Below are positions 45-36,547 of a stretch of DNA of 60,303 nt, piece after piece; within the stretch, counting starts at the first letter, position 1; each line of letters starts with the position of its first letter. The notes below the pieces were generated by a model, which was not told the DNA's origin, made no database searches, and was given only the letters and a program-made list of their open reading frames with translations. The position numbers and the translations under genes were made by a program. This stretch comes from an uncultured virus (IMG/VR IMGVR_UViG_3300013121_000043) (lineage: Duplodnaviria > Heunggongvirae > Uroviricota > Caudoviricetes), in IMG/VR virus record IMGVR_UViG_3300013121_000043. The stretch is one strand, 5' to 3'.

Positions 45-1136
45 TCATCCGGAAGGTGGACTGGGTGGTCGTACATCCTTAGTTTGCTCCTGTTGGGAAA
101 GGCCCTGGACAGCGATTCTGCTAACCTCCTGTGAATCCCGGACAGAAAGATGGACATAGCGCTGTGCCATCGTCAGGGATGTCCAGCCACCCAGTAGCTG
201 CAGTTGTGGGCCTGTGCAACCCTCGCGTGCCGCCGCAGTCAGAATCGTGTGTCGCGTGGAGTAGGGAACAAGGTGCTCGCCGTTGCCATCCATTCCAAGA
301 CCGATCCGCTTCCTGGCCCGGCGCAGGGCGCGAGAGAGATAGGTTCGATCAAAGGGCTTATTGGTGACGTGATTGAAAAAGACATAGCGGGAATGACAGG
401 CAGGCTGACCCTGACGCCGACGCAGCAGCTCCAGCACACTGGGCGGAAACGGAATGATGCGTGGAGCCGGCTGCTTCTGCGTTTTGCGCGTCTTGTGTTC
501 ATGGTACAGCCACAGACTGCGCTCCCAGTCCACGCTCTCCCAGGTCAGCAGCCGCGCCTCGCCGGGTCGGGCCGAGGTGTGCCGACAGATGAAGAACATG
601 TCCCGCGCATCTGTAGACTTGAGCGCGGTATACAGTCGCTCAAACTCGCTCACGGTCATGACCCGCTGGCGGTTCTCCCAGGGCAGGGAGGTCAGGGCCA
701 CGAAGGGACTGGGGCCAGGAATCAGCCGCAGCTGGATCCCCCAGTTGAGCACCATGCGCAGGCTGGCCAGGATGGTGTTGACCGTGTTGTTGGTCTTCTT
801 CTCTTGCAGCAGGAAGTTCTGCCAGCGCGAGAGTTCCAGGGCGGTGATGCTGCTGACGGGAGGATTGCCAAAAAACTTGACCGCCTGGCGGAGAAACTCG
901 CGCCGACAGCGGATGGTGTAGGGAGCCAGATGCTGCTGCTTGTGCTCGGCGTAGCGGTCGATCAGTGTCTTGAGTCGGATCGTTTCCAGACTCTCGGCTT
1001 GCTGCTCCAGCTGTGGCTTCTTCCGCTTGAGTGCCTGCATCGCCTCTTGTCTGGTGGCTCCCAAAAACTGACGGCTACCGCCGGCATCCGTGTAGTAGCC
1101 ATCACGCCAGAAAAATGGCCTGGCCTTGCGTCCCAT
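45..1136 (-). CDS. int: Tyrosine recombinase / phage integrase
   Basis: 363 aa. N-terminal arm-binding/SAM-like region, then catalytic residues R (SARPGE), K (HKTR), YxxR (PYSTRHT, Y for H), W (LGGWTS) and Y (AQRYVH). Confidence 0.93.
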   Translation of the reverse strand: MGRKARPFFWRDGYYTDAGGSRQFLGATRQEAMQALKRKKPQLEQQAESLETIRLKTLIDRYAEHKQQHLAPYTIRCRREFLRQAVKFFGNPPVSSITALELSRWQNFLLQEKKTNNTVNTILASLRMVLNWGIQLRLIPGPSPFVALTSLPWENRQRVMTVSEFERLYTALKSTDARDMFFICRHTSARPGEARLLTWESVDWERSLWLYHEHKTRKTQKQPAPRIIPFPPSVLELLRRRQGQPACHSRYVFFNHVTNKPFDRTYLSRALRRARKRIGLGMDGNGEHLVPYSTRHTILTAAAREGCTGPQLQLLGGWTSLTMAQRYVHLSVRDSQEVSRIAVQGLSQQEQTKDVRPPSPPSG

Positions 1137-1544: not shown

Positions 1545-1571
1545 TAAAATTTCCAGGGTTTTGCGGCAATA
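1545..1571 (+). promoter_or_regulatory. Cassette promoter motif TAAA-N16-GGCAATA (copy A)
   Basis: TAAA 1545-1548 and GGCAATA 1565-1571; same 16-nt spacing in five copies. Confidence 0.75.
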
Positions 1572-1657
1572 TCCTTTGCCGCTCCTCTAGCTCCCGGCCC
1601 TGACTCCGGGCAGGTTAAACTCAAAAGTAGATTTCTTCCTGCCCTGAGGAGACTGTC

Positions 1658-2218
1658 ATGGCCGAGGAGCAAAAATCGCTGCAGTGGTGGCGCGACCACG
1701 CTGCTGCGGCCCGCGAGATGGTGCACCAGCAACCGGAATCGCCAGAAGCATGCTGCCTTTTGGCCATGTCCCTGGGACGCTGTCGCATCATGGGAGGTGA
1801 GCTCGACTGGAAGTTTTCCGTCAAGCGTGCCATCTACGCCAGTGATGCGTTCTTCCATCTCATTGAGGAGTTGCTGGATCGGGTGATGGATGTGGCCTGG
1901 CTGCACCAGCTACTTCCTGAAGCGCTTCCCGATCTGACGGCGTTGATCATCTCCCGGCGGGTGGATGTCATGGCCGTGCAGTTGACTCTGGGCGAGGCGT
2001 TTGAACAGGCCAGCGAGCGCTGGCAGCGTCGGGTGGATAACATCCTGTCGCAGCTGGTCGACGCCCTGGCCGAACTGGATACAGAACTGTGGGCTGCCCT
2101 GCAGATCCTCCGGGATACGGGAGGACTGGTGGACGTGGCAGCCCAGCATCGTGACGAGCTGGCCAAGGGTTACCAGGAGCAGTGGTGGCTCTCGGGTCAG
2201 GAGATCGAGGGATCCTGA
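1658..2218 (+). CDS. Hypothetical helical protein (cassette A)
   Basis: 186 aa with GAGGAG RBS; followed by a hairpin plus T-run. Confidence 0.75.
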   Translation: MAEEQKSLQWWRDHAAAAREMVHQQPESPEACCLLAMSLGRCRIMGGELDWKFSVKRAIYASDAFFHLIEELLDRVMDVAWLHQLLPEALPDLTALIISRRVDVMAVQLTLGEAFEQASERWQRRVDNILSQLVDALAELDTELWAALQILRDTGGLVDVAAQHRDELAKGYQEQWWLSGQEIEGS

Positions 2219-2246
2219 TCGATCCCAATTACTTTCTGGTGTGTTA

Positions 2247-2295
2247 CCAAGACCCTGAACGATCATGGTGATCTTTCAGGGTCTTGGTGTTTTTT
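2247..2295 (+). terminator. Intrinsic terminator
   Basis: ACCAAGACCCTGAA...TTCAGGGTCTTGGT followed by GTTTTTT. Confidence 0.7.
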
Positions 2296-2302
2296 GGAGA
2301 TC

Positions 2303-2785
2303 ATGGTTCTCATGACCGAACGCATTAACAACGTGCTGACTCTGGCCCAGCGGTTCGTTCTGGTGGATCTAATCCGTCAGAACTGGGAACAGCTCAACAA
2401 GGAGCGCTGCACGGATAGGCAGGCCGCGGCCTTGCTGACCAAGGCGGCACGGGAGTATGTCTGCGCCGACGGCTCCGTCGGTGTGGACATGAAGGTGACC
2501 GCTGCCAACGTGCGGTCCCTGCTGCGGAACTGTCTGCATCACCCCAGGGTGATCAAGGACTGGGACCGCAGCATCGCGGCCGTGGGTCGGGAGTCGCAGC
2601 GGCAGCAGGCCGTCCGGGACCAGGAGCAGATCCAGCAGCTGCAGCAACTGGTTCGCAGTCTGGCGGAGCAGGTAACGCACCTGAGCCGCAACGACCAGCG
2701 GCTGACCGAGGTGTTGGACCAGCTGGTCCGACCGACGGGCAACACCCAGCCCCAGCCGACGACCGCAGGGAACGGACACGGCTGA
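2303..2785 (+). CDS. Hypothetical protein with C-terminal coiled coil (cassette A)
   Basis: Open frame with Q/L-rich heptads; start may be 2303 or 2312. Confidence 0.7.
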   Translation: MVLMTERINNVLTLAQRFVLVDLIRQNWEQLNKERCTDRQAAALLTKAAREYVCADGSVGVDMKVTAANVRSLLRNCLHHPRVIKDWDRSIAAVGRESQRQQAVRDQEQIQQLQQLVRSLAEQVTHLSRNDQRLTEVLDQLVRPTGNTQPQPTTAGNGHG

Positions 2786-2824
2786 AGCGCGCCCGGGGCA
2801 CGACCTCCGGGTCCGAAGGCCTCC

Positions 2825-3256
2825 ATGCCCCTGGACTCGTTAAGCTGGCGACAGCGTCTGGCGTTCCAGCACCCCATCCAGAGCCTGGCTGGACTGGAGC
2901 AGGATGACAAGCTCAGCTGGTCCCAGGAGGCACACTACAGGTGTGCCATGGCCATCTGGTACAACAAGGACGTGGACGGCTGGTTCTGGGTTGTCTGGGT
3001 AAAGATCCTGGGCAACAAGAAGCAGCGAAGCAACGGCCGCCGGCGACGACTGATCGCCAAGCTCACCCGCCTGGGTGAGAAGTTATTTATGCGGCCCAGC
3101 CTCCAGCTCCACGTCGGCGACGCCCGCCGACGTGAAACAGAGGTCGACCAGAGCGAGCTCTGCTACCTGGAGACCAGGCCACTCACGGAACCCGAGCTCG
3201 GGCTACTATACAGCCTCATGTTTCGAGAGGAGGCGACACCATCAGCTTCCAGGTAA
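2825..3256 (+). CDS. Hypothetical protein (cassette A)
   Basis: 143 aa, co-oriented within the operon. Confidence 0.65.
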   Translation: MPLDSLSWRQRLAFQHPIQSLAGLEQDDKLSWSQEAHYRCAMAIWYNKDVDGWFWVVWVKILGNKKQRSNGRRRRLIAKLTRLGEKLFMRPSLQLHVGDARRRETEVDQSELCYLETRPLTEPELGLLYSLMFREEATPSASR

Positions 3257-3675
3257 GATGGGCGCTGAGCCAGGATTTTCCCGGCATCCTGGAGCTACAG
3301 CGACGGCTTTACCAGCCGTGGTCCAAACACAGGCTGCGCAAGGTGATGTCCTGTCGCGACATGTTTACTCATGTCGCGATTAACCAGGCGCAGCTTGTGG
3401 TGGGCATGGTTATCTACAGGGTGCGGCCCAGGCACCTGCGTATCTTGCAGCTGGGGGTTCATCCAGACTGGCGACGCCAGGGTGTGGCCACCCAGCTCTG
3501 GCAGCGCGTGCTGTCCAAGCTGCATCCCGAGCGTCGCTCCCGACTCGTCGTCGTGGTACCCGAGCAGTGCGTGGATGTGCAGCTGTTCTTGCGACAGCAG
3601 AAGGTACGCGCCCTGGAACTGCTCTGTAACCGGGATACGGGGCAGGACGACATCTACTTCGAGTACCGGGTGTAA
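3241..3675 (+). CDS. RimI-like GNAT acetyltransferase (probable ATC start)
   Basis: GNAT motif A (LGVHPDWRRQGVATQL) plus planctomycete RimI-like segments (VRW...D, PW, VVGMVIY, SKL...RRSRL, QLFLR). GAGGAGG at 3227-3233 lies 7 nt before an in-frame ATC. Confidence 0.8.
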   Translation: MSFQVRWALSQDFPGILELQRRLYQPWSKHRLRKVMSCRDMFTHVAINQAQLVVGMVIYRVRPRHLRILQLGVHPDWRRQGVATQLWQRVLSKLHPERRSRLVVVVPEQCVDVQLFLRQQKVRALELLCNRDTGQDDIYFEYRV

Positions 3676-3684
3676 TGCCCGGGA

Positions 3685-3729
3685 GAAGAGGGAGTTCCAG
3701 ACAGAACTCCCCCTTCTTTTTTAGCTATC
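3685..3729 (+). terminator. Terminator plus cassette right-end motif (A)
   Basis: GAAGAGGGAGTTC-loop-GAACTCCCCCTTC, then TTTTTTAGCTATC. Confidence 0.8.
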
Positions 3730-3738: not shown

Positions 3739-3765
3739 TAAATTTTGGAGCCAGGGGTGGCAATA
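3739..3765 (+). promoter_or_regulatory. Cassette promoter motif (copy B)
   Basis: TAAA 3739-3742, N16, GGCAATA 3759-3765. Confidence 0.75.
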
Positions 3766-3836
3766 CAGCTTGAGAGGTGCGTTACCTCTTGTTACCGACA
3801 CCAACGGTGTGTGTCGTAACCTGGCGGAGGAGACGC

Positions 3837-4445
3837 ATGTGGCCCATGCGACGCCGCCGGCTGTTATTGACAGCCTTTGGCCTTGTAAAGGCCAAAGGCT
3901 GTCTCGATAAGCTGGCCGTAAGGCTGGCTTACGAAATGGCCGAAAAGTCAGCCGAGCAGTCGGGACTGCTCGGCTGGCTCGATCGTCTCGGCACAGACCG
4001 AGACGATCGCCTGGTTCACGAGCGGTTTACGGATGATACAAACCGCTCTTTTCTGTGGTCCGTTGAGGCCACAGACTGGCACTGGAACGTGCCGGAGTGG
4101 CTCAACAGTGCCGCTGGAAGTCTGGCACTGTCGAGCCAATGGATCCCGGCATGGATCCCGGCATGGATGCCGGGATACGCGCACGGAGGCTGGCGGCTTG
4201 AACCAAGGATGGTTCAAGATTTATTAGCTAGCCCTCCGGTAAGGACGCCGGAGCTCGTAGGCCTGGCCCGGGCGGCCTACGACGATGTCAGGGATGACTA
4301 CACCATGAACCCTGATCTTCTGGGCATCCTCGCAGATGCCCTGGAAGACCAGGACTGCTCCGGGTGGTCCGCAGCTTGTCGACTGCCCATCCCCTATTAC
4401 AGGGGGACGTGGGTGGTCGACTGGTTGCTCGGCTACCCACTGTAG
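3837..4445 (+). CDS. Planctomycete (Gemmataceae)-type family protein (cassette B)
   Basis: GGAGG RBS and ATG at 3837. The C-terminus LARAAYDD...ILADALEDQDC...CRLP.PYYRGTWVVDWLLG resembles the expanded Gemmata 'LPILADALEDAGC...RGCWVVDLLLG' domain. Confidence 0.75.
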   Translation: MWPMRRRRLLLTAFGLVKAKGCLDKLAVRLAYEMAEKSAEQSGLLGWLDRLGTDRDDRLVHERFTDDTNRSFLWSVEATDWHWNVPEWLNSAAGSLALSSQWIPAWIPAWMPGYAHGGWRLEPRMVQDLLASPPVRTPELVGLARAAYDDVRDDYTMNPDLLGILADALEDQDCSGWSAACRLPIPYYRGTWVVDWLLGYPL

Positions 4446-4452
4446 TTGTTTT

Positions 4453-4496
4453 GGTCCGGGGGTGTTCCTACCCCCGGGCCGTTTTTTTTAGCTATC
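4453..4496 (+). terminator. Terminator plus cassette right-end motif (B)
   Basis: GGTCCGGGGGT-loop-ACCCCCGGGCC, then a T-run and AGCTATC. Confidence 0.8.
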
Positions 4497-4528: not shown

Positions 4529-5095
4529 ATGCTTGCGCTACCGCCCTACCTTCTGGCCCAATACCGACAGTTCTGTCAGGACCAGCTTTACCACCTGGCC
4601 TACCAGCACGGCCGACCCGAGCAGCACAAGCAGGCCGCGGTTCCTGAAGCCGTTCCCGGGCTGACCGGCACGCTGTACGGCTCCCGCTCCGGCTGGTTAC
4701 TTCTGACCGTACCCAACGCCGTCGCCCGGGGCCTGTTTGATGCCCTGCACGAGCAGGGCGTGGAGCTACCCCGTAACCGGGATGGCAAGCTCAACGCGCA
4801 TATCTCGGTGATGAACCCCGGCGAGCTGGCCAGAATCGGTGGACTGGACAAGATCTCCGAGCGCGGCCACAGCTTCCGTTACAACCTGGGTGCCATCAAA
4901 ACGGTACGACCCACCACCTGGAATGGTGTCTCACGCGTCTGGTACGTCAGCATCACCAGTCCCGAGTTACAGGCGTTACGACGCTCCTACGGACTCTCCT
5001 CACTGCCCAACGAAAACAAGCACGAGTTTCACTGCACGTTTGCCATTCGCAAGCGTAAGGTGCTACACAGCAACGATGTGTGTAAGTCATGTTAG
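4529..5095 (+). CDS. 2H phosphoesterase superfamily protein
   Basis: Two HxS/T motifs (AHISV, FHCTF) about 77 aa apart; N-terminal leader ends in KQA. Confidence 0.8.
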   Translation: MLALPPYLLAQYRQFCQDQLYHLAYQHGRPEQHKQAAVPEAVPGLTGTLYGSRSGWLLLTVPNAVARGLFDALHEQGVELPRNRDGKLNAHISVMNPGELARIGGLDKISERGHSFRYNLGAIKTVRPTTWNGVSRVWYVSITSPELQALRRSYGLSSLPNENKHEFHCTFAIRKRKVLHSNDVCKSC

Positions 5096-5593: not shown

Positions 5594-5797
5594 ATGCCTA
5601 AAACCGCCGCCCAGATCCTTGGTCTGAAGATCACGCGCGTGTCCATGACCGCCCTGCCCAAGAAAGAATCCAGGCAGGAGGATGAGGAGAAGGAAGACCA
5701 GGAAAAAGGGGACATTCCCTCCGAGGAGCTCTGGGACGATCTGCAGGAGTTACTGGCATCACTCTGCGAGGAGGGTGAGGATGAAAGAGCATCATAA
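5594..5797 (+). CDS. Small acidic hypothetical protein
   Basis: 67 aa, E/D-rich; overlaps the start of the next gene. Confidence 0.5.
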   Translation: MPKTAAQILGLKITRVSMTALPKKESRQEDEEKEDQEKGDIPSEELWDDLQELLASLCEEGEDERAS

Positions 5798-6410
5798 ACC
5801 CGTACCCTGCGTGTCCTTGCGTGATGGAGATCAGTTGATCTGTCCTCACTGCAACACGGCGCTGGCTGACAAGGATATCTACAAGGACTGCAAGGGCTGG
5901 ACTTTTTGTCGCAGCTGTTTTCGCAAGGGGCGCGGCGCTATACTATTACCCCCACGACCAGAAAAACGCGCCACGTTTTTATTCGAGCACGACTGTCCCG
6001 ATGAACCTCTGGCGAAAGAAGGACAGCGCACTCTCTGGTCACCGAACCGACCCGTGGACTTACGTTCACGTAAACCGGCGGACCGTCAGAACAAAGATAT
6101 GACGGCGTTTTACCAGGCAGGACCTGCCGGCGAGCTTTCTTCGCCCGGTGGGTTACCGCCCGAGGCCTACCTGTTGCCCGCAGGACTGGTCGGCGAGGCG
6201 GTACTGGGAGAAACGCTGCCGCGTGGGCTGCTGCGCGGTCTGCTGACAGGTGGCGGCGCAGCTGCGGGAGGCCTGCTGGCCAACCACGCCACGTCGGGCG
6301 ATATCGGTAGTCGACTGACAGGTAGTGCCACGGGCGGTGCCCTGGGTTATCTATTGTCCCGCTACCTGCTTCCCGAGGAGAAGCAAGAAGAAAAGTTACC
6401 GTTTGACTAA
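5781..6410 (+). CDS. Zn-ribbon plus glycine-zipper protein
   Basis: CPHC...CRSC, an EKRA motif, and C-terminal GxxxG hydrophobic helices. Confidence 0.7.
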   Translation: MKEHHKPVPCVSLRDGDQLICPHCNTALADKDIYKDCKGWTFCRSCFRKGRGAILLPPRPEKRATFLFEHDCPDEPLAKEGQRTLWSPNRPVDLRSRKPADRQNKDMTAFYQAGPAGELSSPGGLPPEAYLLPAGLVGEAVLGETLPRGLLRGLLTGGGAAAGGLLANHATSGDIGSRLTGSATGGALGYLLSRYLLPEEKQEEKLPFD

Positions 6411-6500: not shown

Positions 6501-6986
6501 ATGGCGGAGAAGATCCACCCGTTCGCGACGGCCAGCGCCAGTCCGTCTCTGTACAACCTCATCGATCTGTTTTTGCAGCAACACGGCACGGAGGCTGGCA
6601 CAGCCCAGTTCAAATCCTGGTTAGCTCACAACTACCCGGAGCGTCGCTTCAAGCGGGAGAGTATTCGTACCGCCATGTCGGTGCGCAAGCGTCGATTGCG
6701 CGAGTACCAGGAGATGACGCAGGAACATCCTCCCGGGCCGGCAGCAACAACCACGGTTACCGTACGCAGCCAGGATGTCTCGGAATCCGGCAACAGCGTG
6801 CCCGCGCTCTCCACCACGACCCTGACGGTGGCCGAATTGCGACAGGTCAAGGAACTGATTCCTGATGTGGCCCAGCTGGATACGCTCCAGCAGCAGGTCA
6901 CCACGGTCAGCCACATGGCCGAGCAGGTGGGTGGTCTGGACCGTCTGCGTGCTGCCGTGGCTGCACTGGTCGAATTGCGCCGCTGA
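6501..6986 (+). CDS. Hypothetical protein (planctomycete-like C-terminal motif)
   Basis: 161 aa ending ..MAEQVGGLDRLRAAVAALVELRR; AT-rich upstream region. Confidence 0.7.
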   Translation: MAEKIHPFATASASPSLYNLIDLFLQQHGTEAGTAQFKSWLAHNYPERRFKRESIRTAMSVRKRRLREYQEMTQEHPPGPAATTTVTVRSQDVSESGNSVPALSTTTLTVAELRQVKELIPDVAQLDTLQQQVTTVSHMAEQVGGLDRLRAAVAALVELRR

Positions 6987-7030
6987 TAGCTAAAGAAAAA
7001 CCCCGGGAGTAACGACTTGTTACTCCCGGG
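6985..7030 (-). terminator. Terminator plus cassette right-end motif (C, minus strand)
   Basis: Hairpin CCCGGGAGTAAC/GTTACTCCCGGG; the minus strand continues TTTTTCTTTAGCTATC. Confidence 0.7.
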
Positions 7031-7037
7031 AAAAACC

Positions 7038-7217
7038 CTAGCCGCGGAGCTCAAACTCCGCGGCTAGGGTTTTTAGTTGAAAGAGGAGCTGGTTGAGCTC
7101 AACCAGCTCCTCCTCAATCTCTTCCCGTTGTCGGCCGGTCGCGACCGACAACGAGAGGAGAGAGAGCATCCGGGCCCCTTCCAGGGCCCGGATCTCTCCG
7201 TAGATTTGAGGATCCAT
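7038..7217 (-). CDS. 59-aa protein not in the ORF track (cassette C)
   Basis: Minus-strand AGGAGG-N6-ATG. Translation MDPQIYGEIRALEGARMLSLLSLSVATGRQREEIEEELVELNQLLFQLKTLAAEFELRG*. Lies between the cassette promoter and terminator. Confidence 0.6.
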   Translation of the reverse strand: MDPQIYGEIRALEGARMLSLLSLSVATGRQREEIEEELVELNQLLFQLKTLAAEFELRG

Positions 7218-7297
7218 GATGATCCTCCTGAGGAGTCAATCCCTCGCAGGAACCCAGACACCGCGTCGGTTCCTGCAAGAGCTATGCTCCCACGCGG

Positions 7298-7324
7298 TAT
7301 TGCCCCACTTCGGTCTGTTTTTTA
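7298..7324 (-). promoter_or_regulatory. Cassette promoter motif (copy C, minus strand)
   Basis: Forward TATTGCC 7298-7304, N16, TTTA 7321-7324, which is TAAA-N16-GGCAATA on the minus strand. Confidence 0.75.
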
Positions 7325-14279: not shown

Positions 14280-15145
14280 GTCAGAACAGCAACAAGCCCG
14301 CTCCCGCCAAGGCTACGCCTCCGGCCAAGACGGCACCGCCGACACCTCCCAGCGTCTCCCAGCTGGCGGACCAGCAGCGCAACTACCTGATTTCGCGGCT
14401 GCTCCTGGCTGCCGGTGGCGCGGGTCTGCTGGGGATCGGTCTGGGTGCGGGCAACCAGCTCGTCCAGTACATGAAGCGTCGCGACATCAGCGAGGGTCCC
14501 ATCGACGAGACCCAGCAGGATGTGCAGTTTTACTACCCCCAGAAAAAGAAGCCCCAGCTCAAGCAGGCTAACTTTCTGGACCTGCTGGGACGCCGGGCCA
14601 CGGGCGTAGCCAACTACTTCCGGGGTATGGGCCAGGCTCTGCCCAACCTACGCAGCGTTACGGAAAACGCCCTAGAGACCACGCCTGGCAAGGAGATGTC
14701 GTTCACCCAGCTGCTCAAGGAGCATCCCTACGCCCTGCCGATCGGCCTGTCCATGGCAGGGCTGTCGGCCGTGGGTGGCTACAGCCTGGCCAACAGTGCT
14801 GGCAAGCAGCTCCGGGAGTTCGATTACGAGCGGCAGGTGGACGAGGCCCAGGATGAGTACGAGCGCGCCCTGCTGGGGCAGTATCCCCACGACAGCAACA
14901 CCAAGAAGGCCAACACGGGGCTGAGTCTGTCCGATCTCTGGAAGCTGGCTCCGCTCTACGCCATTCCAGCGTTCACCGCCGCGGGTTACTACGGCTACAC
15001 CAGCAACAAGAAGCGTCAGTCGGATACCCACGACCATATCCTGCGTCGTCGTGCCATGCTGCGTCTGCTGGAATCGCCGCCAGAGACACACTTCCTGCCC
15101 ATGGCCATGGACGACAAGGACGAAGACGGAAAGCGCCGTCGTTAA
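14276..15145 (+). CDS. Gly-zipper membrane-associated putative virion protein
   Basis: Three hydrophobic Gly-rich segments separated by KQA and KKA motifs. Confidence 0.7.
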   Translation: MSQNSNKPAPAKATPPAKTAPPTPPSVSQLADQQRNYLISRLLLAAGGAGLLGIGLGAGNQLVQYMKRRDISEGPIDETQQDVQFYYPQKKKPQLKQANFLDLLGRRATGVANYFRGMGQALPNLRSVTENALETTPGKEMSFTQLLKEHPYALPIGLSMAGLSAVGGYSLANSAGKQLREFDYERQVDEAQDEYERALLGQYPHDSNTKKANTGLSLSDLWKLAPLYAIPAFTAAGYYGYTSNKKRQSDTHDHILRRRAMLRLLESPPETHFLPMAMDDKDEDGKRRR

Positions 15146-15167
15146 CCTTCTTCCGGGAACCCGTCCC

Positions 15168-18100
15168 ATGAGTAGCTTTCTTGACGGGCTGACCCCGCCC
15201 GAACCCTCTCCGCTTCCCGAACTGGCCACGCCGCAACCCGCGGTAGTGCCCCCTGCCCCGGCGATCTCTCCCACGCCGGGTCCAGGGGTACTACCGCTGA
15301 GCCTGGCCAGCGACAGCGGCATCCCACCGCGGATGGACGATCCCGGGGCACGCAACGCCCTGGTCAACGCCCTGGCCCGGGCGCTCTCCCGCAATCCACG
15401 ACGCGGCTTCCGTCCCAGCCAGCCGCGGCCCCAGGGTGGCGGTGTTGAGAATGACGGTGCCCCGCCGGGCGTGACGCTACGCGATTTTGCCGACCCTCAT
15501 GCCGTGCGCTACGGCATCTACGACCGCGTCCTGGCCGCAGCGTTCAAGGTCCGTCCTGTGGAGAACTCGCGCTACCGACTGCAGCTGGGTGACATCTCCT
15601 GGGCCGAGCCGGCCGAGTTCAGCTACAAGCAGCAGAAAGAAGCGATCCTGGGTGGACGCTCCCTGCACCGTCGACTCAAGGGAACCTATCAGCTGGTGGA
15701 CAAGGCCACGGGCAAGACCGTGGACAGCCGCGATACCACCCTGGCCCACGTTCCCTACTACACTCACCGTGGTACCTTCATCCTCAACGGCACCGAGTAC
15801 ACCATGGGCCACCAGATGCGTCTGCGCTCGGGGGTGTACACGCGTGTCAAGGAATCGGGCGAGCTGGAGGTTCACTGGAACACCCTGCCCGGACGCGGAC
15901 TGTCCCATCGCTATCACCTGGAGCCGGAATCCGGTATCTTCAAGCTCAATATCGGCCAGGCCAACCTGCCACTGATGCCGCTGCTCAAGGCGATGGGCGT
16001 CTCGGACAAGGAGCTGCAGGCGGCCTGGGGCAAGGAGCTCTACCAGAAGAATCAGGAGCAGGATAACCCCAACCTGCTGGACAAGATCTACCAGCGTCTG
16101 GCCGGCAACCGGGGCAAGACGGGGCTGTCGCACGAGGATCGCCGCAAGTACGTGGTGGAACGGTTTCAGCAGATGGAGCTGGACCCGGAGGTGACCCAGC
16201 ACACCCTGGGGAAGCCGTTTACGCACATCACCAAGGACGCCATGCTGGCAGCGACCACCAAGCTGCTCAAGGTCTCTCGGGGCGAGGAGCGTAGCGATGA
16301 TCGCGACGATCTGACCTTCCAGCATTTTTATGGCCCCGAGGATCTCCTGGCCGAGCCGCTGGAGCGTAACGCCGTACCGCTGCAGAAGATGTTGTGGAAG
16401 GCCACCAACCATGGCAATCTGCGCTCCCTGGGCCCGGGACTGATGACCCCGGCGGTGCAGTCGGCTATCTTTGGGAGCGGACTGGCCGCGCCGGCGGAGG
16501 AGGTCAACGCCCTGGATATCTTTGATGCCCAGACCCGTGTCTCGCGCATGGGTCGTGGCTCCATTCAGGACATCGATGCCATTCCCGACAGCGCCCGACA
16601 GGTGCATCCCTCGCAGGTGGGTTTTATCGATCTGTCCCGTACCAGCGAGAGTCTGAAAATCGGCGTCGATCTGCGTCTGGCCCACCGGGCCCGGAAGGGC
16701 TCCGACGGCAAGATCTACACCCCACTTCTGGACCCCAAGACCGGGCGCGAGGTCTACCGCTCGCCCCAGGATATCGCCCGCAGCGTTCTGGCGTTTCCAG
16801 GAGAGCTGGATAGCAACCGGCCCATGGTGGTGGCCCTACAGCACGGACGCACGGTGTATGTTCCACGCAACAAGGTGGATTACGCCCTGCCCCACATGGA
16901 GAACGCCTTCTCGCCCATCACCAACCTGGTGGCGATGAAGTCGCAGGTCAACCCCCAGCGCGTCAGCATGGGCTCACGGTTTCTGATCCAGTCCCTGGCG
17001 TTGCGCGAGGCCGAGGCTCCGTTTGTCCAGCCGCGTGTGCCCGGAAGTGACAAATCGTTTTATGAGCATTACGGACGCCATGCCGGCAACGTCCACGCCC
17101 GCGAGGAGCAGGGTGGCCGCGTGGTCCGGGTCAGCCCGGAAGAGATTGTCGTTCGCTACGACGATGGCAAGGAAAAGACCCACGAGCTGTACAACCACCT
17201 GCCCTACAACCGCAAGTCGTTCATCCACAACACCCCGCTGGTGCGGCAGGGCGACCGGATCGAGCCAGGGCAGTTACTGGCCCACTCCAACTACACCGAC
17301 AAGACCGGCACCATCGCCATGGGCAAGAACCTGCGCGTGGCCTACCTGGCGTTCCCCGGTCCCGGCGGCGAGGCCAACTACGAGGACGCCTTCGTTCTCT
17401 CCGAATCGGCGGCACGCAAGCTGGAGTCAGAGCACGCCTACCAGCATGCCCAGGAGTGGGATGAGACCTACAAGCGCGGCAAGAAGAATTTCATCTCCAT
17501 CTTTCCCACCACCTTTGATCGCAAGAAGCTCGAGACCCTGGATGAGGACGGAGTGATCAAGCCCGGCACGGTGGTCAAGGAAGGGGATCCGCTGATCCTG
17601 GCGGTCAAGCAAAAGGAGCGAACCCACAAGCAGCTTCACGGCGGGCACAAGAGTGGCTGGTCGGATCACACCCAGCTGTGGGAGCATCACAGCGACGGTA
17701 TCGTCACCGACGTGTTCAAGTCCGACAAGGGGACCAACGTCGTCGTCAAGTCGTACATGCCCACCCAGGAGGCGGACAAGCTCTCGGGACGTCATGGAGA
17801 CAAGGGTGTGGTCCGTATCGTCAAGGACGACCAGATGCCCCACGACGAGAACGGTCAGCCGTTTGATATCATCGCCAACCCCCTGGGCGTGATCTCGCGA
17901 GGTAACCCCGGCCAGGTGGTGGAGGCGATTCTGGGCAAGATCACTGCCAAGACCGGGATTCCCTACAAGATCGATGACTTTGATGGGGCCAACGAGGACA
18001 TGATCGAGTGGGCGATGCGCGAGGCGGAAAAGCACGGTGTCTCCGATCTGGAGACCGTGATCGACCCCATGACCGGGCGCAAGATCCCCAACGTACTGAC

Positions 18101-19850
18101 CGGCTACCGCTACTACCTGAAACTGCACCACCTCAGCGAGTCCAAGGGCTCGGCGCGCGGCCTGGGCAGCTACACCGCCGAGGGGCTGCCGGCCCGTGGC
18201 TCCGAGGAGGGTCAGCAGGCCAAGAAGGTGGCGATGATGGACGTGTCGGCGCTGCTGTCGCACTCGGCACTGTCCGTACTGCGTGATAACAAGCTGGTGC
18301 GCGGCAACCAGAATCTCGAGTACTGGACCACGCTGATGTCGGGCAACCGCCCGGCCACGCCACCCGTACCGTTCATGTACGAGAAGTTTATCAACACCCT
18401 GCGTGGCTCGGGTATCAACGTGCAGCGCAAGGGCAATCAGCTCCATCTCATGGCTCTGAGCAACAAGCACCTGGAGGAGCTGGCCGGGGATCGTGAGCTG
18501 AAGAATGTCGAGACGGTGGACTGGAAGGATGGCATGAAGCCGATTCCCGGCGGTCTGTTTGACCCCGGTCTGACCGGCAGCCACGGAGGTAACCGCTGGG
18601 CCAAGATCACCCTGCATGAGCCGCTTCCCAACCCCGTGTTCGAGGAGCCGATTCGCCGCCTGCTCAACCTGACGCAGAAGCAGTTTGAAGCGGTCCTGGC
18701 CGGGGAGGAGAAGCTGGGCGAGCAGACCGGTCCCAGGGCGATCGCCCACGCCCTGGAAAAGATCGATCTGGACAAGGCGATCGAGCAGGCCCGGGCCGAC
18801 ATCGCCTCGGGACGCAAGACCTACCGCGATGCGGCCATCCGCCGCCTGGGCTACCTCAAAGGAGCCAAGAACACCAACACCCACCCGCGGGACTGGCTGC
18901 TCAAGGCCGTGCCCGTGCTGCCTCCCATCTTCCGACCGATCTCGATCATGCAGGGCAGTGGGGGTCAGCTGGTGGCTGATGCCAACCTGCTGTACAAGGA
19001 TCTGTTTGAAGCCAACCAGGTGCTGCGTGACATGTCCGGTCGCGTGGACGATCTGCGCGACGAGCGCCGTAACGTGTACAACGCCTTCAAGGCCGTGGTC
19101 GGCCTGGGCGACCCGGTGAACCCCAAGACCGCCGAGAAGAAGGCCCAGGGGTTACTGGCCCAGCTGCTGGGCAGCAGTCCCAAGCACTCCTGGCTACAGC
19201 AGAAGCTGATCGGCACGCCCGTCAACCTGGTCGGTCGCGCCGTGGCCACGCCGGACACCAACCTGTCGATGGACGAGCTGGGCATCCCCGAGAAGCAGGC
19301 ATGGACGGTGTACAGTCCGTTCATCGTCCGTAACCTGGTGCGCAAGGGTGTGGGTCGCACCCAGGCCCTGGAGTACGTGGAAAAGAAGCATCCCACGGCA
19401 CGCAAGGCGATGATCGAGGAGATGGAGGCCAGCCCGGTGATCATGACCCGGGCCCCGGTGCTGCACCGTTACGGTCACATGGCGTTCTGGCCCAAGCTGG
19501 TCAAGGGCGATACGCTGCGCACCAGTCCGCCGATCACCAAGGGTTATGGTCTGGACTACGACGGCGACACCATCAACTGGCATGTTCCCGTGGAGGAGGA
19601 GGCCCGACGCGAGGCCGCACTCAAGATGCTGCCCAGTCGTAACCTCTTTGCCGTGGCCGATTTCAAGTCTCCTGTCTACGCTCCAACCATGGAGTTTCTG
19701 GGTGGAGCCTACCGGCTGAGCACGGCCAAACCCAGCGGCGGTACACCCCGCGTCTTTGCCACCATGGCTGACTTCAAGCGGGCCTGGCAGGCCGGGGAAC
19801 TGGGTCCGGAGGACACCGTCCATATCGTGGATTCCTCTGCTAAAAAGTAA
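15168..19850 (+). CDS. rpoBC: Phage multisubunit RNA polymerase: beta fused to the N-terminal half of beta'
   Basis: Beta motifs GTFILNGTE, DKLSGRHGDKGV, NPLGVISRGNPGQ and YYLKLHH. Beta' motifs GGLFD, VPVLPPIFRP, TRAPVLHR and the catalytic DYDGD. Likely start is ATG 15168. Confidence 0.95.
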   Translation: MSSFLDGLTPPEPSPLPELATPQPAVVPPAPAISPTPGPGVLPLSLASDSGIPPRMDDPGARNALVNALARALSRNPRRGFRPSQPRPQGGGVENDGAPPGVTLRDFADPHAVRYGIYDRVLAAAFKVRPVENSRYRLQLGDISWAEPAEFSYKQQKEAILGGRSLHRRLKGTYQLVDKATGKTVDSRDTTLAHVPYYTHRGTFILNGTEYTMGHQMRLRSGVYTRVKESGELEVHWNTLPGRGLSHRYHLEPESGIFKLNIGQANLPLMPLLKAMGVSDKELQAAWGKELYQKNQEQDNPNLLDKIYQRLAGNRGKTGLSHEDRRKYVVERFQQMELDPEVTQHTLGKPFTHITKDAMLAATTKLLKVSRGEERSDDRDDLTFQHFYGPEDLLAEPLERNAVPLQKMLWKATNHGNLRSLGPGLMTPAVQSAIFGSGLAAPAEEVNALDIFDAQTRVSRMGRGSIQDIDAIPDSARQVHPSQVGFIDLSRTSESLKIGVDLRLAHRARKGSDGKIYTPLLDPKTGREVYRSPQDIARSVLAFPGELDSNRPMVVALQHGRTVYVPRNKVDYALPHMENAFSPITNLVAMKSQVNPQRVSMGSRFLIQSLALREAEAPFVQPRVPGSDKSFYEHYGRHAGNVHAREEQGGRVVRVSPEEIVVRYDDGKEKTHELYNHLPYNRKSFIHNTPLVRQGDRIEPGQLLAHSNYTDKTGTIAMGKNLRVAYLAFPGPGGEANYEDAFVLSESAARKLESEHAYQHAQEWDETYKRGKKNFISIFPTTFDRKKLETLDEDGVIKPGTVVKEGDPLILAVKQKERTHKQLHGGHKSGWSDHTQLWEHHSDGIVTDVFKSDKGTNVVVKSYMPTQEADKLSGRHGDKGVVRIVKDDQMPHDENGQPFDIIANPLGVISRGNPGQVVEAILGKITAKTGIPYKIDDFDGANEDMIEWAMREAEKHGVSDLETVIDPMTGRKIPNVLTGYRYYLKLHHLSESKGSARGLGSYTAEGLPARGSEEGQQAKKVAMMDVSALLSHSALSVLRDNKLVRGNQNLEYWTTLMSGNRPATPPVPFMYEKFINTLRGSGINVQRKGNQLHLMALSNKHLEELAGDRELKNVETVDWKDGMKPIPGGLFDPGLTGSHGGNRWAKITLHEPLPNPVFEEPIRRLLNLTQKQFEAVLAGEEKLGEQTGPRAIAHALEKIDLDKAIEQARADIASGRKTYRDAAIRRLGYLKGAKNTNTHPRDWLLKAVPVLPPIFRPISIMQGSGGQLVADANLLYKDLFEANQVLRDMSGRVDDLRDERRNVYNAFKAVVGLGDPVNPKTAEKKAQGLLAQLLGSSPKHSWLQQKLIGTPVNLVGRAVATPDTNLSMDELGIPEKQAWTVYSPFIVRNLVRKGVGRTQALEYVEKKHPTARKAMIEEMEASPVIMTRAPVLHRYGHMAFWPKLVKGDTLRTSPPITKGYGLDYDGDTINWHVPVEEEARREAALKMLPSRNLFAVADFKSPVYAPTMEFLGGAYRLSTAKPSGGTPRVFATMADFKRAWQAGELGPEDTVHIVDSSAKK

Positions 19851-19867
19851 GGCGAAGCCTGGCAATA
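19841..19867 (+). promoter_or_regulatory. Cassette promoter motif (copy D)
   Basis: TAAA 19841-19844, N16, GGCAATA 19861-19867; overlaps the end of the RNAP gene. Confidence 0.75.
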
Positions 19868-19903
19868 TCGGGTAGGTCCCGGGTTCCTCATTGGAGGGGG
19901 AAC

Positions 19904-20104
19904 ATGTTCCAGGAGTCGTTACAGTCTCTGCTTGAGGCGCTGTTGCCCGAAGACAGAGACTGGGCAGAGCTGTTGGTACAGTGTAATCCGCAGTCAGCCC
20001 GGGAGGAGATCCAGGAGCGACTGCGGGCCATGTACTGGCGTCCGCCCGTTTTCCAGCATGAGGATAAAAATGAGAAAAGAAACGTCGGAAGGGTCACAGC
20101 CTGA
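19904..20104 (+). CDS. Small hypothetical protein (cassette D)
   Basis: 66 aa with GGAGG RBS. Confidence 0.55.
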   Translation: MFQESLQSLLEALLPEDRDWAELLVQCNPQSAREEIQERLRAMYWRPPVFQHEDKNEKRNVGRVTA

Positions 20105-20549
20105 GCTGTGGCGTGAGGAAATGCCGTTCACGCAGGCCAACGTCTGTCTGTCGACAGAGCTGGTCGACCTTTTGCTTACTTATGGTAAGCAAATGGGACT
20201 CGATCTCACAGCCACGATGACGGTGGTGCTGAACGAGCACTACCGGGATATCCTGGGAGAGATCGTGGATCGGGTTGGCATGTTCCAGGCCGCCGGACAG
20301 ATCGCCCGGGTGCAGCTGTTCCACGAGCTGTCCCGGCAGGAGGAAGACATCCTCAATCTGGCCACGCCCGCCAGGCTGGACGAGGACGAGCCTTTTGGCA
20401 TCGAGCGGCTGAGTGAGTTCGTCCGACTCCTCGCCGACATAAAAAAAGAAAGAGACGTACCAGCGCGTCTCACGGCAAAGGCGCTACTGGCCTATGCCAT
20501 TCGCTGTCGTAGCATCGTCCACCAGCTCCTGATGTTGCAGAGAAAGTAG
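20070..20549 (+). CDS. Hypothetical protein (cassette D)
   Basis: GAGGA RBS and ATG at 20070; 159 aa. Confidence 0.65.
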   Translation: MRKETSEGSQPELWREEMPFTQANVCLSTELVDLLLTYGKQMGLDLTATMTVVLNEHYRDILGEIVDRVGMFQAAGQIARVQLFHELSRQEEDILNLATPARLDEDEPFGIERLSEFVRLLADIKKERDVPARLTAKALLAYAIRCRSIVHQLLMLQRK

Positions 20550-20554
20550 TGTTA

Positions 20555-20602
20555 CACGGCTGTTCCCGCCCAGGGGAACAGCCGTGCTCTTTTTTAGCCA
20601 TC
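20555..20602 (+). terminator. Terminator plus cassette right-end motif (D)
   Basis: CACGGCTGTTCCC/GGGAACAGCCGTG, then TTTTTTAGCCATC. Confidence 0.8.
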
Positions 20603-20659: not shown

Positions 20660-21421
20660 GTGGGTCTCAACCGTACACTTTTGACGCTGGCGCAGCGGCG
20701 TTTGCAAAAACAGGCTGTCTCTCCCCCGGGCGGTGCTCCCCCCGGAGGTGCGCCTCCGATGGATCCGGCCATGATGGGCGGTGGTGGCATGCCACCCATG
20801 GATCCGGCCATGATGGGTGGCGGTGGCATGCCGCCGATGGACCCGGCCATGATGGGTGGTATGCCACCCATGGATCCAGCCATGATGGGCGGTATGCCTC
20901 CTCCTCCGCCTCCGCCACCCGCTCCGGGTGGGCCTAGTGGCGCGCCCGATATCGCCAGTATCGTCAGTCAGGCGGTCCAGCAGGCGATGCAGAACAACGG
21001 CGGTATCGCCGGGCCGGCCCAGGCCGCGGGTGGCAAGCCACCCAAGCCCGACATCAACATGGTGGCCACCGACGTCTTCCAGATCAAGAAGCTCCTGCAG
21101 GATCTGTATAACCGCAACGGCTGGCCGCTACCGGAGGGGATTCTCGACGGTCCCGGACGCGATCCCATGACCGGCATGCCCACGGCCTCCCCCATGGGCG
21201 GCTCGGATCCTGCGGGCAGTCCACCGCCCGGACCGCCTCCGGAGTCGGCCATCAGTCCGATCGGGCCCATGGAAGGAGCATTCCCGACCCCTGGTCAGGG
21301 CAAGAGCGCCCAGGCCAACCACCCTCCGGTCGGCAGTAGCTTCGCACCCACGGAAAGTTTTGCCTCGCGGGCCCAGGCCGTAGCCCGTCTGTTCCAGCGG
21401 CGTAAACAGCATGTGGCTTGA
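20660..21421 (+). CDS. Pro/Gly/Met-rich low-complexity protein
   Basis: Likely GTG start at 20660; leader ends in QKQA; tandem PPMDPAMMGG(GG)M repeats. Confidence 0.7.
   Translation: MGLNRTLLTLAQRRLQKQAVSPPGGAPPGGAPPMDPAMMGGGGMPPMDPAMMGGGGMPPMDPAMMGGMPPMDPAMMGGMPPPPPPPPAPGGPSGAPDIASIVSQAVQQAMQNNGGIAGPAQAAGGKPPKPDINMVATDVFQIKKLLQDLYNRNGWPLPEGILDGPGRDPMTGMPTASPMGGSDPAGSPPPGPPPESAISPIGPMEGAFPTPGQGKSAQANHPPVGSSFAPTESFASRAQAVARLFQRRKQHVA
20753..20900 (+). repeat. Coding tandem repeat (4 x PPMDPAMMGG[GG]M, 33-39 bp units)
   Basis: Repeated ATGGA(T/C)CC(G/A)GCCATGATGGG units. Confidence 0.9.
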
Positions 21422-21659: not shown

Positions 21660-23579
21660 ATGCTCAAGGGAACGGCCGGACAGCTGATCTTACAGAGTGT
21701 GCTGCCCGAGGACATGCGCCAGCCCGATCGTGTGCTGGACAAGAAGGGTATGAGCAAGCTGCTGACCGAGCTGGCCCAGAAGCATCCGGACCAGTACAGC
21801 CAGGTACTGCACCAGCTGATGCGCGTGTCCCACCAGGCGGCCTACTGGACCAACGCCCAGTCGTTTGGTCTGAAGCACTTGCGCGGCGATCCCAGCGTGC
21901 GTAAACTGCGTCAGGAGCTGCAACAGCAGACGGAAGCGATCTGGAATAACAGCCGGCTATCGGACAGGGAGAAGGAGGCCAGGATTGTTACTCTGTCCTC
22001 TGAATATCAGAGCAAGATCGAAGCCGCCACGTTTGCAGCCGCGCAGGCTGCCCAGAACCCTCTTGCCGAACAGGTCGTCTCTGGATCACGTGGTAATAAA
22101 ACCCAGCTCAATACCCTACTTGGAGCACCGGTACTTTATACCGATCATAACGGCGACCCCATCCCCTTCCCTGTATTACGGTCTTTTTCCGAAGGTCTGC
22201 GGCCATATGAGTATTATGCTAGCACCTTCGGCGCTCGCTCCGGTCTGATTGATACCAAGCTCTCCGTGGCCGACACCGGCTTTCTCAGCAAGCAGTTTGT
22301 CCAGGCGGCACACCGTCTCCTGGTCTCGGCCATTGATGCCGACAAGGAAGACGATACCGTACGCGGCTTCCCCGTGTCGGTGGACGATCCCGACAACGAG
22401 GGTGCGTACCTGGCCCAGCCCGTGGGTCCCTACAAGCGCAATACGCTCCTGACACCGGCCATTCTCAGCGATCTGCAAAAACAGGGAGTCAAGCGTCTGC
22501 TGGTACGCTCGCCCACGGTGGGTGGACCTGCCGACGGGGGTGTCTACAGCCGTGACGTGGGGATGCGCGAAAAGGGACGACCGGCTCCCCTGGGCGATTT
22601 TGTCGGCGTGGCCGCGGCCCAGGCTGCCTCGGAGGCGCTGACCCAGGGTGCCCTTAGCTCCAAGCACTCCGCCGGCGTGGCCGGAGCCAACAAGTCAATG
22701 ACCGGGTTTCATCTCATCAACCAGCTCATTCAGGTGCCCAAGACGTTCACCGGCGGGGCCAGCCACGCCCGACTGGACGGCAAGGTCGAGAAGATCGTGC
22801 CGGCTGCCCAGGGCGGTCACTACGTTCGCGTGGGTGGTGTGGAACATTACGTTGGTCAGGGGTTTGACATCACCGTCAAGCCTGGCGACGAGGTGGAGGC
22901 GGGCGACGTCCTCAGCGATGGGATTCCCAACCCTGCCGAGGTGGTGCGCTACAAGGGGATCGGCGAGGGTCGTCGCTACTTCACGCAAACAATGCTGGAT
23001 GCCTACAGGCGCTCGGGCATCACGGCGCACCGCCGTAACCTGGAGCTGATTGCGCGCGGGCTGATCAACCACGTCCGACTCAAGGATGAGTTTGATGAGT
23101 TCGTCCCCGAGGATGTCATGCAGTACAGCCACCTGGAACATCGCTGGCAGCCGCGCGAGGGACACCAGGTGGTCGATCCACGCCAGGCCCGTGGCTGGTA
23201 TCTGGAAAAGCCGGTGCTGCACTATTCGGTCGGTACGCCGATCCGTCCCAGCGTGATCAAGAACCTGCAGGAGTTCAACATCAAGCAGATCGCGGCCCAC
23301 CGCGAGCCGCCCCCGTTTGAACCCGAGATGGTCCGTGGTCTGGAAAACCTCACCCACGACCCGGACTGGCAGACACGCTTCCTGGGCAGCTACGTCAAGA
23401 AGAACCTGCTCAAGGGAGTTCATCGTGGCGATGTCTCCGACGAGCGTGGCACCAGTTATGTCCCGTCGCTGACCCGTGCCGTGGACTTCAACAAGTGGCC
23501 GCCGGTCAAGGGTTACTCGACCGAGGAGCATGGTCCGGTCAAGCGACCGATCCATCTCTCTCCGGAAGTGGACAGCTAA
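21660..23579 (+). CDS. rpoC: RNA polymerase beta' C-terminal half (bridge helix, trigger loop)
   Basis: SGSRGN; SFSEGL..YEYYASTFGARSGLIDT....DTGFLSK (bridge helix); GVAAAQAASEALTQGALSSKHSAG (trigger loop); VEAGDVLSDG. Confidence 0.93.
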   Translation: MLKGTAGQLILQSVLPEDMRQPDRVLDKKGMSKLLTELAQKHPDQYSQVLHQLMRVSHQAAYWTNAQSFGLKHLRGDPSVRKLRQELQQQTEAIWNNSRLSDREKEARIVTLSSEYQSKIEAATFAAAQAAQNPLAEQVVSGSRGNKTQLNTLLGAPVLYTDHNGDPIPFPVLRSFSEGLRPYEYYASTFGARSGLIDTKLSVADTGFLSKQFVQAAHRLLVSAIDADKEDDTVRGFPVSVDDPDNEGAYLAQPVGPYKRNTLLTPAILSDLQKQGVKRLLVRSPTVGGPADGGVYSRDVGMREKGRPAPLGDFVGVAAAQAASEALTQGALSSKHSAGVAGANKSMTGFHLINQLIQVPKTFTGGASHARLDGKVEKIVPAAQGGHYVRVGGVEHYVGQGFDITVKPGDEVEAGDVLSDGIPNPAEVVRYKGIGEGRRYFTQTMLDAYRRSGITAHRRNLELIARGLINHVRLKDEFDEFVPEDVMQYSHLEHRWQPREGHQVVDPRQARGWYLEKPVLHYSVGTPIRPSVIKNLQEFNIKQIAAHREPPPFEPEMVRGLENLTHDPDWQTRFLGSYVKKNLLKGVHRGDVSDERGTSYVPSLTRAVDFNKWPPVKGYSTEEHGPVKRPIHLSPEVDS

Positions 23580-23603
23580 AAAAACACCAGAAGTGTGGCA
23601 ATA
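23577..23603 (+). promoter_or_regulatory. Cassette promoter motif (copy E)
   Basis: TAAA 23577-23580 (includes the rpoC stop codon), N16, GGCAATA 23597-23603. Confidence 0.75.
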
Positions 23604-23607
23604 CTCT

Positions 23608-23823
23608 GTGAGGGAGTTAGCACACACCGCTCCCTCGCCCCGGTGGGATAATTATCCTGTCCCACCGGGGATTTGCCCTTCCTACTGCAGCGTCCCTCAC
23701 GGCGCAAGGCAGTAGGCGGGCAGCGGCCGGACACGACACCGTAGTCCGTAAGGACTGTGTCCGGCCGCCTATTTTCTGCAGACCAGGAGCCACCCACGGT
23801 GGTAGCTCCTGGTCTTTTTTTTT
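23608..23823 (+). ncRNA. Putative structured ncRNA of about 215 nt (cassette E)
   Basis: No ATG between promoter and terminator; five consecutive hairpins, including AGTCC-GTAA-GGACT (GNRA loop). Confidence 0.55.
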
Positions 23824-23830
23824 AGCTATC
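23781..23830 (+). terminator. Terminator plus cassette right-end motif (E)
   Basis: GACCAGGAGC...GCTCCTGGTC, then T9 and AGCTATC. Confidence 0.8.
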
Positions 23831-36537: not shown

Positions 36538-36547
36538 CGGGGTGTCA

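Follow-up and report, generated by a model that had tools for sequence, protein, structure and literature searches.

Bacterial coding sequences are usually protected by ribosomes and mildly structured. Why is one small gene of a tailed phage folded into hairpins from end to end? The gene, ORF B, lies in cassette B of the window, the 60,303-nucleotide stretch of uncultured viral DNA analyzed here. A sequence-only reading had described a nearly gap-free chain of local stems through this ORF, at a density that it did not see in the RNA polymerase (RNAP) or capsid genes, and both observations hold. All six stems quoted there were located (arm starts 3869/3888 for the 16-bp stem, then 3949/3964, 3981/3998, 4020/4040, 4198/4211 and 4256/4274). 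Local folding with a base-pair span of at most 70 nt resolved positions 3766–4484 into 21 hairpin domains, which cover 91% of the 719 nt and are separated by linkers of 0–11 nt. Relative to 60 dinucleotide shuffles, this segment gave z = −14.6 on the plus strand and −18.2 on the minus strand with RNA parameters, and −17.8 (+) and −16.6 (−) with DNA parameters. Controls of the same length scored +0.8 (RNAP β) and −2.7 (capsid) with RNA parameters; cassette and backbone genes do not share the same z-scores, the backbone being clearly weaker. Protein-preserving shuffles of synonymous codons, 12 for each of two start choices, placed ORF B at z = −12 and −28, and three pieces of the RNAP and capsid genes at 0 to −1.8. 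One backbone exception, the gene at 5784–6410, reached −3.3 against synonymous shuffles. Perfect stems of at least 6 bp number 20 in the 719 nt of cassette B, compared to 3.4–3.6 per kb in 47 kb of backbone, and in a 120-nt scan of 980 windows over the first 58.9 kb the deepest runs lay at 3.8–4.5 kb and 7.0–7.2 kb. The tiling covers the whole promoter-to-terminator unit, including the untranslated leader. Scans of the whole window returned no Rfam match at the gathering score and no tRNA.

Cassette B is bounded by two motifs that recur in the window (Table 1). The promoter-like motif TAAA-N16-GGCAATA has five exact matches (1545+, 3739+, 7298−, 19841+ and 23577+) where 0.28 would be expected, each of which opens a cassette, and allowing one mismatch adds no further match in the window. 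It resembles a sigma-28-type promoter, with a spacer one base longer, and no sigma-70 site was called at B. The terminator motif TTTTTAGCTAT, with one mismatch allowed, has six matches in the window vs 0.16 expected; five follow a hairpin and close the five units, and the sixth is the promoter of unit D read in reverse. Tiling is strong in units B, C and D and milder in A and E. Unit A has z of −2.2 to −4.8 against synonymous shuffles. Unit C (z = −15) is the most strongly tiled and stands at the top of 30,676 windows from 174 sequences. Unit D reaches z = −11 and is probably a non-coding RNA, because its sense strand has no ATG-started ORF of at least 20 aa; it has no Rfam match.

Table 1. 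Positions of cassette B, the other transcription units and neighboring features in the window
Feature	Position	Strand	Basis or content
Tyrosine integrase	45–1136		Domain match
Unit A	1545–3728	+	Promoter 1545–1571, four small genes, terminator 3690–3728; mildly structured
Promoter-like motif of B, TAAA-N16-GGCAATA	3739–3765	+	Exact motif match
Structured leader of B, Shine-Dalgarno-like GGAGGAG at 3826–3832	3766–3836	+	Fold and sequence
ORF B, 202 aa, hairpin-tiled	3837–4445	+	Divergent member of a Planctomycetota-type family
Long hairpin pairing RG-W-V-D codons with upstream stretch	4371–4428	+	Fold compared with alignment
Terminator of B: GC hairpin, T tract, then AGCTAT	4453–4495	+	Motif TTTTTAGCTAT
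2H phosphoesterase gene, unstructured backbone, marker of B's syntenic slot	4529–5095	+	Domain match, synteny
Unit C	6986–7324	−	Promoter 7298–7324, 59-aa ORF 7038–7217, terminator ending at 6986
Phage RNAP large subunit 1 (β and N-terminal β′ domains)	15051–19850	+	Pfam Rpb2/Rpb1
Unit E, between RNAP genes	19841–20601	+	Promoter, two small ORFs, terminator; mildly to moderately structured
Phage RNAP large subunit 2 (C-terminal part of β′), cysteine-free	21660–23579	+	Pfam Rpb2/Rpb1
Unit D, 3′ of RNAP β′	23577–23829	+	Promoter, about 220 nt of hairpins, terminator

Several smaller observations concern these units. The last gene of unit A (3343–3675, +) encodes a GNAT acetyltransferase. The ORF of unit C is made of near-perfect stems of 10–19 bp, with codon set against codon in four of five helices, and its start region is predicted to be sequestered in a stem. 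After several terminators (at about 4497, 7340, 20610, 23845 and 58912) stands a short motif like GGTTAAACT, GGTTATGCT or TTTATCAT, which is possibly a late (backbone) promoter. TTTAGC was considered as a fixed −35 box of this downstream promoter and rejected, the spacing to the next −10-like hexamer varying by eye. The exact pattern of the unit promoter has one match in viral contigs; it falls within a gene of an AT-rich phage that is unrelated, and was taken as chance.

ORF B most likely starts at 3837, judging from its place behind the GGAGGAG, and this start codon is paired in a predicted stem. The C-terminal 70 residues match 351 representatives of a protein family (best E 2.7e-8) and keep the family block LARAAYD...LADALE...RG-W-VD-LLG. 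The N-terminal R-L-L helix motif is faint, and the first N-terminal motif of the family is missing. A family HMM trained on 64 of B's own top hits scores B at 86 bits vs a median of 218, the lowest of 65, and a histidine kept in at least 90% of 87 aligned family sequences is replaced. The upstream arm of the long hairpin that pairs the RG-W-V-D codons reads ACRLPIPY, where the family consensus is HLRxPGPH. This suggests that pairing was bought with amino-acid changes, plain drift being another possible cause.

Alignment and predicted structure describe the 202-aa product as one of a soluble-looking helical family. The model of B is confident at residues 131–199, with the C-terminal domain above pLDDT 90, and poor at 54–116 (pLDDT < 50). 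ESM Atlas automatically labels the family 'SMI1/KNR4 family protein', a name that no Pfam, NCBIfam or PHROG match backs, B and eight homologues giving no domain match. The best structural match (Z 4.6, rmsd 1.9, 46 aligned residues) is to TPR-like helices. None of 48,161 chains reached Z ≥ 5 in the fold search, which does not show a new fold, and a viral structure search gave no match at E ≤ 0.001. Among 665 candidates for close homologues, only B itself was found, and domain, NCBIfam, PHROG and fold searches assigned no function. The family is expanded in two related phages: G001 carries roughly a dozen copies, spread over many places (L173–L182; 21 matches), and G009 has several at 72.7–85.3 kb (12 matches), whereas six other relatives have zero.

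The condition of this protein bears on whether the RNA itself is the product. Units of this kind could yield duplex-rich decoy or sponge RNAs, with ORF B a captured gene under conversion. The missing N-terminal motif and histidine, the poorly modeled middle and the paired start codon would fit such a fate, as would the lack of an ATG-started ORF in unit D and a unit of about 100 nt in G009 that is too short for a gene. However, B keeps an open frame of 202 codons, a Shine-Dalgarno sequence and the well-modeled C-terminal domain, and the units share no common fold, sequence or loop motif and have no Rfam match. We regard an RNA product as distinctly unlikely.

Comparison to relatives indicates what the tiling follows. 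Thirty-six homologues of ORF B elsewhere, at 26 viral loci and in 10 G001 copies, are untiled. The viral loci, 28 before one duplicate and one G001 locus were dropped, have a mean z of −0.4 and a minimum of −2.5, where B, cut in half, has −9.0 and −8.5; the G001 copies, 10 of 11 being scored, range from −2.5 to +2.9. Because ORF B belongs to a large family whose homologues are unstructured, the data support a structure superimposed on real coding sequence, which is the part of the sequence-only claim of selection over coding that stands. The complete 194-kb genome of G009 has the same promoter and terminator as the window and, within such units, tiles unrelated ORFs of 63, 208 and 247 codons. 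One unrelated tiled gene of G009 directly precedes the 2H phosphoesterase gene, the slot of B in the window; in G001 this slot holds other small genes.

Structure tracks the promoter in the window (p = 1e-4). A promoter matrix trained on 11 promoters scores four further G009 sites above 17, and these held-out sites have a mean downstream z of −2.47 vs a genome mean of −0.49 (permutation p = 1e-4). Structured segments begin behind three of them, and the fourth leads into a unit of about 100 nt. Among the merged structured segments of G009, six of ten lie behind a promoter match and four do not, and the G009 unit at 118813 has the same signals and is untiled. G008 (45% GC) has several tiled units that end in the same terminator and start from a variant promoter; the p = 0.001 obtained for this variant is circular, the motif having been taken from structured segments, and was discounted. 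In the window, G009 and G008, the sequence before the terminators is on average more structured than the sequence after them; this is not so in G001, where units with the same signals are untiled (p = 0.65). Tiled units have no common sequence beyond promoters and leaders. Seven relatives were scanned in full record: G009 and G008 are clearly tiled, G002 is partly tiled (its site set contains one hand-added site), and G001, G005, G007 and Salmonella phage Arash show little tiling; all were picked for carrying the motif or the gene family, and the counts are not those of a random sample. At 160 RNAP-centered loci and four others, there were at most four perfect 8-bp stems per 400 nt, where B has eight. 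An 8-kb stretch of G008 matches G013 at 100%, and one tiled gene of G008 has identical copies alone. What carries the tiling is the unit, from promoter to terminator, whichever gene lies within it.

Other small structured elements were seen in these genomes. At 52276–52175 (−) of G009 (locus L236), promoter and terminator enclose about 100 nt that form two hairpins and contain no gene. G001 has a small repeated hairpin, GCAGCGGGCT(G/A)AA(T/A)GCTGC, in several intergenic copies (L174, 16880–17180; L175, 19270–19290), and a related phage has a perfect 28-bp palindrome, GCGGCGACAAAATCGATTTTGTCGCCGC, between genes (L003, 1305, 6898 and 12439; L004, 5899, 11492 and 17033).

Which polymerase reads these units? 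The window, half of a 122-kb contig, comes from a tailed phage that encodes a tyrosine integrase, two large subunits of an RNAP, an SNF2 helicase and structural proteins; the integrase scores far under the curated cut-offs of its best-matching NCBIfam models. With β and β′ of a multi-subunit RNAP alongside tailed-phage structural genes, the phage fits, by gene content, the mReC phages. Its subunit split is unlike that of bacterial β/β′, the catalytic β′ domains being on the first chain, as in Arash. Subunit 1 has no cysteine past the first 16 codons of its longest ORF, and the cysteine-free state of the subunits presumably parallels that of the N4 virion RNAP. There are over 1,500 β′ homologues, and an alignment search retrieved 160 loci, where a single-sequence locus search had given none. 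The nearest RNAP homologues are on phage contigs (49–71% identity), and Arash, among the best cultured matches, has 28–30% identity. The β′ genes of several relatives contain inserts.

In Arash, β, β′ and the sigma factor gp10 were detected in purified particles, and the authors allow for co-purification instead of packaging (PMC10585845, available text). Homologues of gp10 are present in G001, G008 and G009, and a search for them found no sigma gene in the window. PMC12619734, in its accessible part, concerns another lineage. We infer that a virion RNAP with its sigma would read early units among late genes. The sequence-only view of the transcript as early mRNA gains indirect support from B's own promoter and terminator, and from virion RNAP and sigma in the cultured relative. 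Arash, whose Salmonella host is in another phylum than the Planctomycetota, also has terminators of the hairpin + TTTTTAGC type, one of which closes an island that separates the RNAP genes. In five of eight genomes, no triplet after hairpin and T tract is more frequent than AGC. The terminator motif has 23 matches in eight phage records and 0 for a reversed control, and is not enriched in two Planctomycete MAGs (31 vs 30 in the control). The strict promoter is absent from these two MAGs and from three phages. The host is probably a member of the Planctomycetota, as inferred from the ORF B family; RNAP relatives fall in Gemmataceae and Planctomycetia bins, and binning is weak host evidence because they also fall in 12 other bins of 14.

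Rho avoidance was one of the roles proposed earlier. If host RNAP transcribed the units, the hairpins could remove the unstructured, C-rich sites on which Rho loads. Rut sites are C>G, weakly structured and 60–90 nt long (PMC12360218, excerpt), and units A, B, C and E of the window are G>C on the sense strand where the backbone is C>G, with unpaired C about halved in B. However, skew and structure are uncorrelated over the ORFs of four genomes, G>C prevails among the genes of G008 and G009 in any case, unit D has the opposite skew (C>G), and the promoter was not found in two candidate host MAGs. Genome-wide base composition gives no support to this role, which we consider very improbable.

Beyond the units, the 2H phosphoesterase gene is conserved in G001, G008 and G009; some phage enzymes with such folds break down immune nucleotides. 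Three virion proteins (36542–39157, 39584–41251 and 52239–53996) have arabinofuranosidase-B-like domains (PF09206, phrog_10356). A structural-region gene at 29975–31792 (+) has weak Hint/intein matches below Pfam cut-offs, and a proline-rich gene flanked by the RNAP genes has tandem repeats encoding M-D-P-A-M-M-G-G-G at 20760–20900 (+).

Folding of single-stranded DNA was likewise among the proposed roles. An ssDNA entry intermediate is unlikely because the units lie on both strands, are dispersed, and have structure that starts and stops at transcription signals. Mobile ssDNA cassettes are a separate proposal, in which complementary ends (AGCTAAAAA...TTTTTAGCT) and a folded body would serve a recombinase, as integron attC sites do. 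Units C and D fold to one domain through end pairing, slots exchange content between relatives, C runs in the opposite orientation to a G001 unit whose promoter is similar, and the window encodes a tyrosine integrase. However, the 5′ ends keep CTAAA only, and the left end of B is a poor complement. No arrays or empty sites were identified. The end motif is assigned to terminators because a short bidirectional terminator of G008 carries it on both sides. Reading the unit ends as terminal inverted repeats was rejected, and we give the cassette proposal very little credence.

The remaining question is whether selection on the transcript or a mutational process wrote the hairpins. Strong transcription might expose ssDNA or RNA:DNA hybrids in which template switching perfects inverted repeats, leaving hairpins without function. 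This would predict the link to the promoter as well, and weakly constrained accessory genes would tolerate the changes, B being the most degraded of 65 family members. In yeast, such mutations were seen only under high transcription (PMC3820800, in part). The stems are unusually perfect, 193 of them holding 24 bridged internal mismatches. The z-scores are the same on both strands, and among 100 loops GNRA loops divide 5:5 between the strands, with no tetraloop preference.

Against template switching stands a pooled excess of G-U on the sense strand. Mismatches, flanking and internal, were counted for helices predicted on both strands without G-U pairing, and in 12 units the sense strand had 72 G-U and 39 A-C, vs 34:44 in the backbone (Fisher p = 0.005); against the ratio of 1.09 given by composition, the excess has p about 0.005. 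B alone gave 10:6, which is not significant, and a folding-free count over 15 units gave 11:5 (p = 0.14). G-T is the better mismatch in DNA as well; the bias therefore singles out the sense strand without pointing to RNA in particular. In the codon register of helices, the 3-3 class is not clearly depleted (46/162, p = 0.10), the backbone being uneven too. A cover that is 91% complete and near gap-free need not arise neutrally, all 14 tested ORFs stay open, and B keeps its C-terminal motif. No report of such saturation was found in the open-access literature searched. On the strand comparison suggested by the sequence-only reading, the pooled sense excess speaks for an asymmetry; the equal z-scores of the strands and the count for B alone do not. 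The part of its claim that names selection is weakly supported, the pooled G-U asymmetry being significant and the stricter count and B alone not. Overall, the evidence leans to selection on the transcript. Template switching stays a serious rival, which we nevertheless consider rather unlikely.

Shielding from RNases or defense is the leading family of explanations among the roles proposed earlier. Our preferred reading, held tentatively, is that B is a self-contained early transcription unit, and that early mRNAs made by a virion-packaged polymerase have been selected to fold as they are made, in place of ribosome cover. The promoter and the hairpin–U-tract–AGC terminator would be read by the phage's own virion-packaged RNAP with its sigma. 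This enzyme, injected with the DNA, would be uncoupled from host ribosomes, leaving the first transcripts naked. Selection would then have filled these transcripts with short-range hairpins, which form soonest and could close at the polymerase exit. Endonucleases would then find hardly any unpaired RNA to cut, and hardly any would be free to pair again with the template as R-loops; the price would be residue substitutions where the protein is under weak constraint. Coupled translation keeps nascent RNA safe from RNases and from R-loop formation, and T7 transcripts that outrun ribosomes are unstable (both PMC7858274, available excerpt). A counterpoint is that heavy structure should hinder translation. 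Uncoupling alone is insufficient, because units with the same signals are untiled in G001 and at one G009 unit, and Arash, G005 and G007 are little tiled. Since such untiled units exist, a host-dependent factor probably adds to folding for protection.

A separate rival is evasion of a specific weapon against single-stranded RNA, such as a host toxin RNase, an mRNA-modifying enzyme, RNA-targeting CRISPR or the phage's own shut-off nuclease, which would act in the first minutes of infection and in some hosts only. This would explain the patchiness, with clear tiling in two of seven relatives. CmdT modifies single-stranded and not double-stranded RNA (bioRxiv 10.1101/2024.02.24.581662, in the part available), and early genes are the preferred source of Type III CRISPR spacers (PMC13575424, excerpt). 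However, the backbone mRNAs would be left unprotected, and evasion of one such weapon seems quite unlikely to us. A broader extension of folding for protection is a gene-independent rule in this lineage of RNAP phages, by which genes captured behind the virion-polymerase promoter would turn into rows of hairpins, in part at the expense of their amino-acid sequence, self-armored mRNAs would grade into non-coding decoy RNAs (unit D), and the AGCTAT tail would be a sequence-specific termination or 3′-end signal of the polymerase family; this extension is possible but doubtful.

Unrelated genes in three phages are fully paired within sharply bounded units, and homologues elsewhere are not. Nature has here run a test of how much folding an mRNA tolerates and what is gained by it. 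If the structure was selected, the first transcripts would seem to be under a hitherto unrecognized pressure where a phage brings its own polymerase, and design rules for nuclease-resistant messages could follow. If it is mutational, it would represent extreme transcription-linked template switching that reshapes proteins. In either case, the motifs are candidate promoter and terminator signals for an RNAP family without mapped signals in the available text of PMC7481178 and PMC10585845.

Some elements of this arrangement have precedents. Morons are known promoter–gene–terminator cassettes of phages; B likewise has its own promoter and terminator and is replaced at the same slot in relatives. 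The units also resemble the promoter-early stem-loop (PeSL) elements of T4-type phages, in which a repeated early promoter and a stem-loop terminator bound swappable accessory genes among late genes (PMC2839356, in the part accessible). PeSL promoters match the sigma-70 consensus of the host, and their stem-loops lie between genes, within or next to the promoter (PMC2839356, same part), whereas the window motif is not a sigma-70 consensus and the whole transcript forms hairpins, coding sequence included. Recombination between motifs gives mini-circles in PeSL elements; three DNA sequencing runs examined here have hardly any coverage of the region. Similarity to mReC phages and Arash extends from β and β′ within the structural module to Arash's gene order, homologous capsid and RNAP, and hairpin + TTTTTAGC terminators; Arash differs in being untiled. 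The words 'hairpin', 'sigma' and 'Planctomycet' are absent from the accessible text of the mReC paper (PMC7481178), and 'promoter' and 'terminator' from that of the Arash paper (PMC10585845).

Type I toxin mRNAs offer another parallel: their structure is believed to make them resistant to RNases and to keep them out of R-loops as long as they are not translated (PMC7858274, excerpt). Unit C is similar to them in size and in its paired ribosome-binding region. However, ORF B encodes 202 aa and not a membrane peptide, and its structure is a row of independent local hairpins that recurs in unrelated genes. As for an antisense antitoxin unit, the opposite strand of B has neither the motif promoter nor a sigma-70 site, the two promoter types considered. 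Integron cassettes are promoterless, attC-ended and held in arrays beside IntI, whereas the units here carry promoters and are dispersed. Within the SMI1/KNR4-labeled Planctomycetota family, B shares the C-terminal block; none of the members tested diverges further, and no other is tiled. Dense, sequence-variable, ordered structure over coding sequence is known from the genomes of RNA viruses and ssRNA phages; here, the virus is a tailed phage with a DNA genome, and only individual transcription units carry the structure. Neither whole-transcript tiling of unrelated DNA-phage genes nor these motifs were found in the open-access literature searched.
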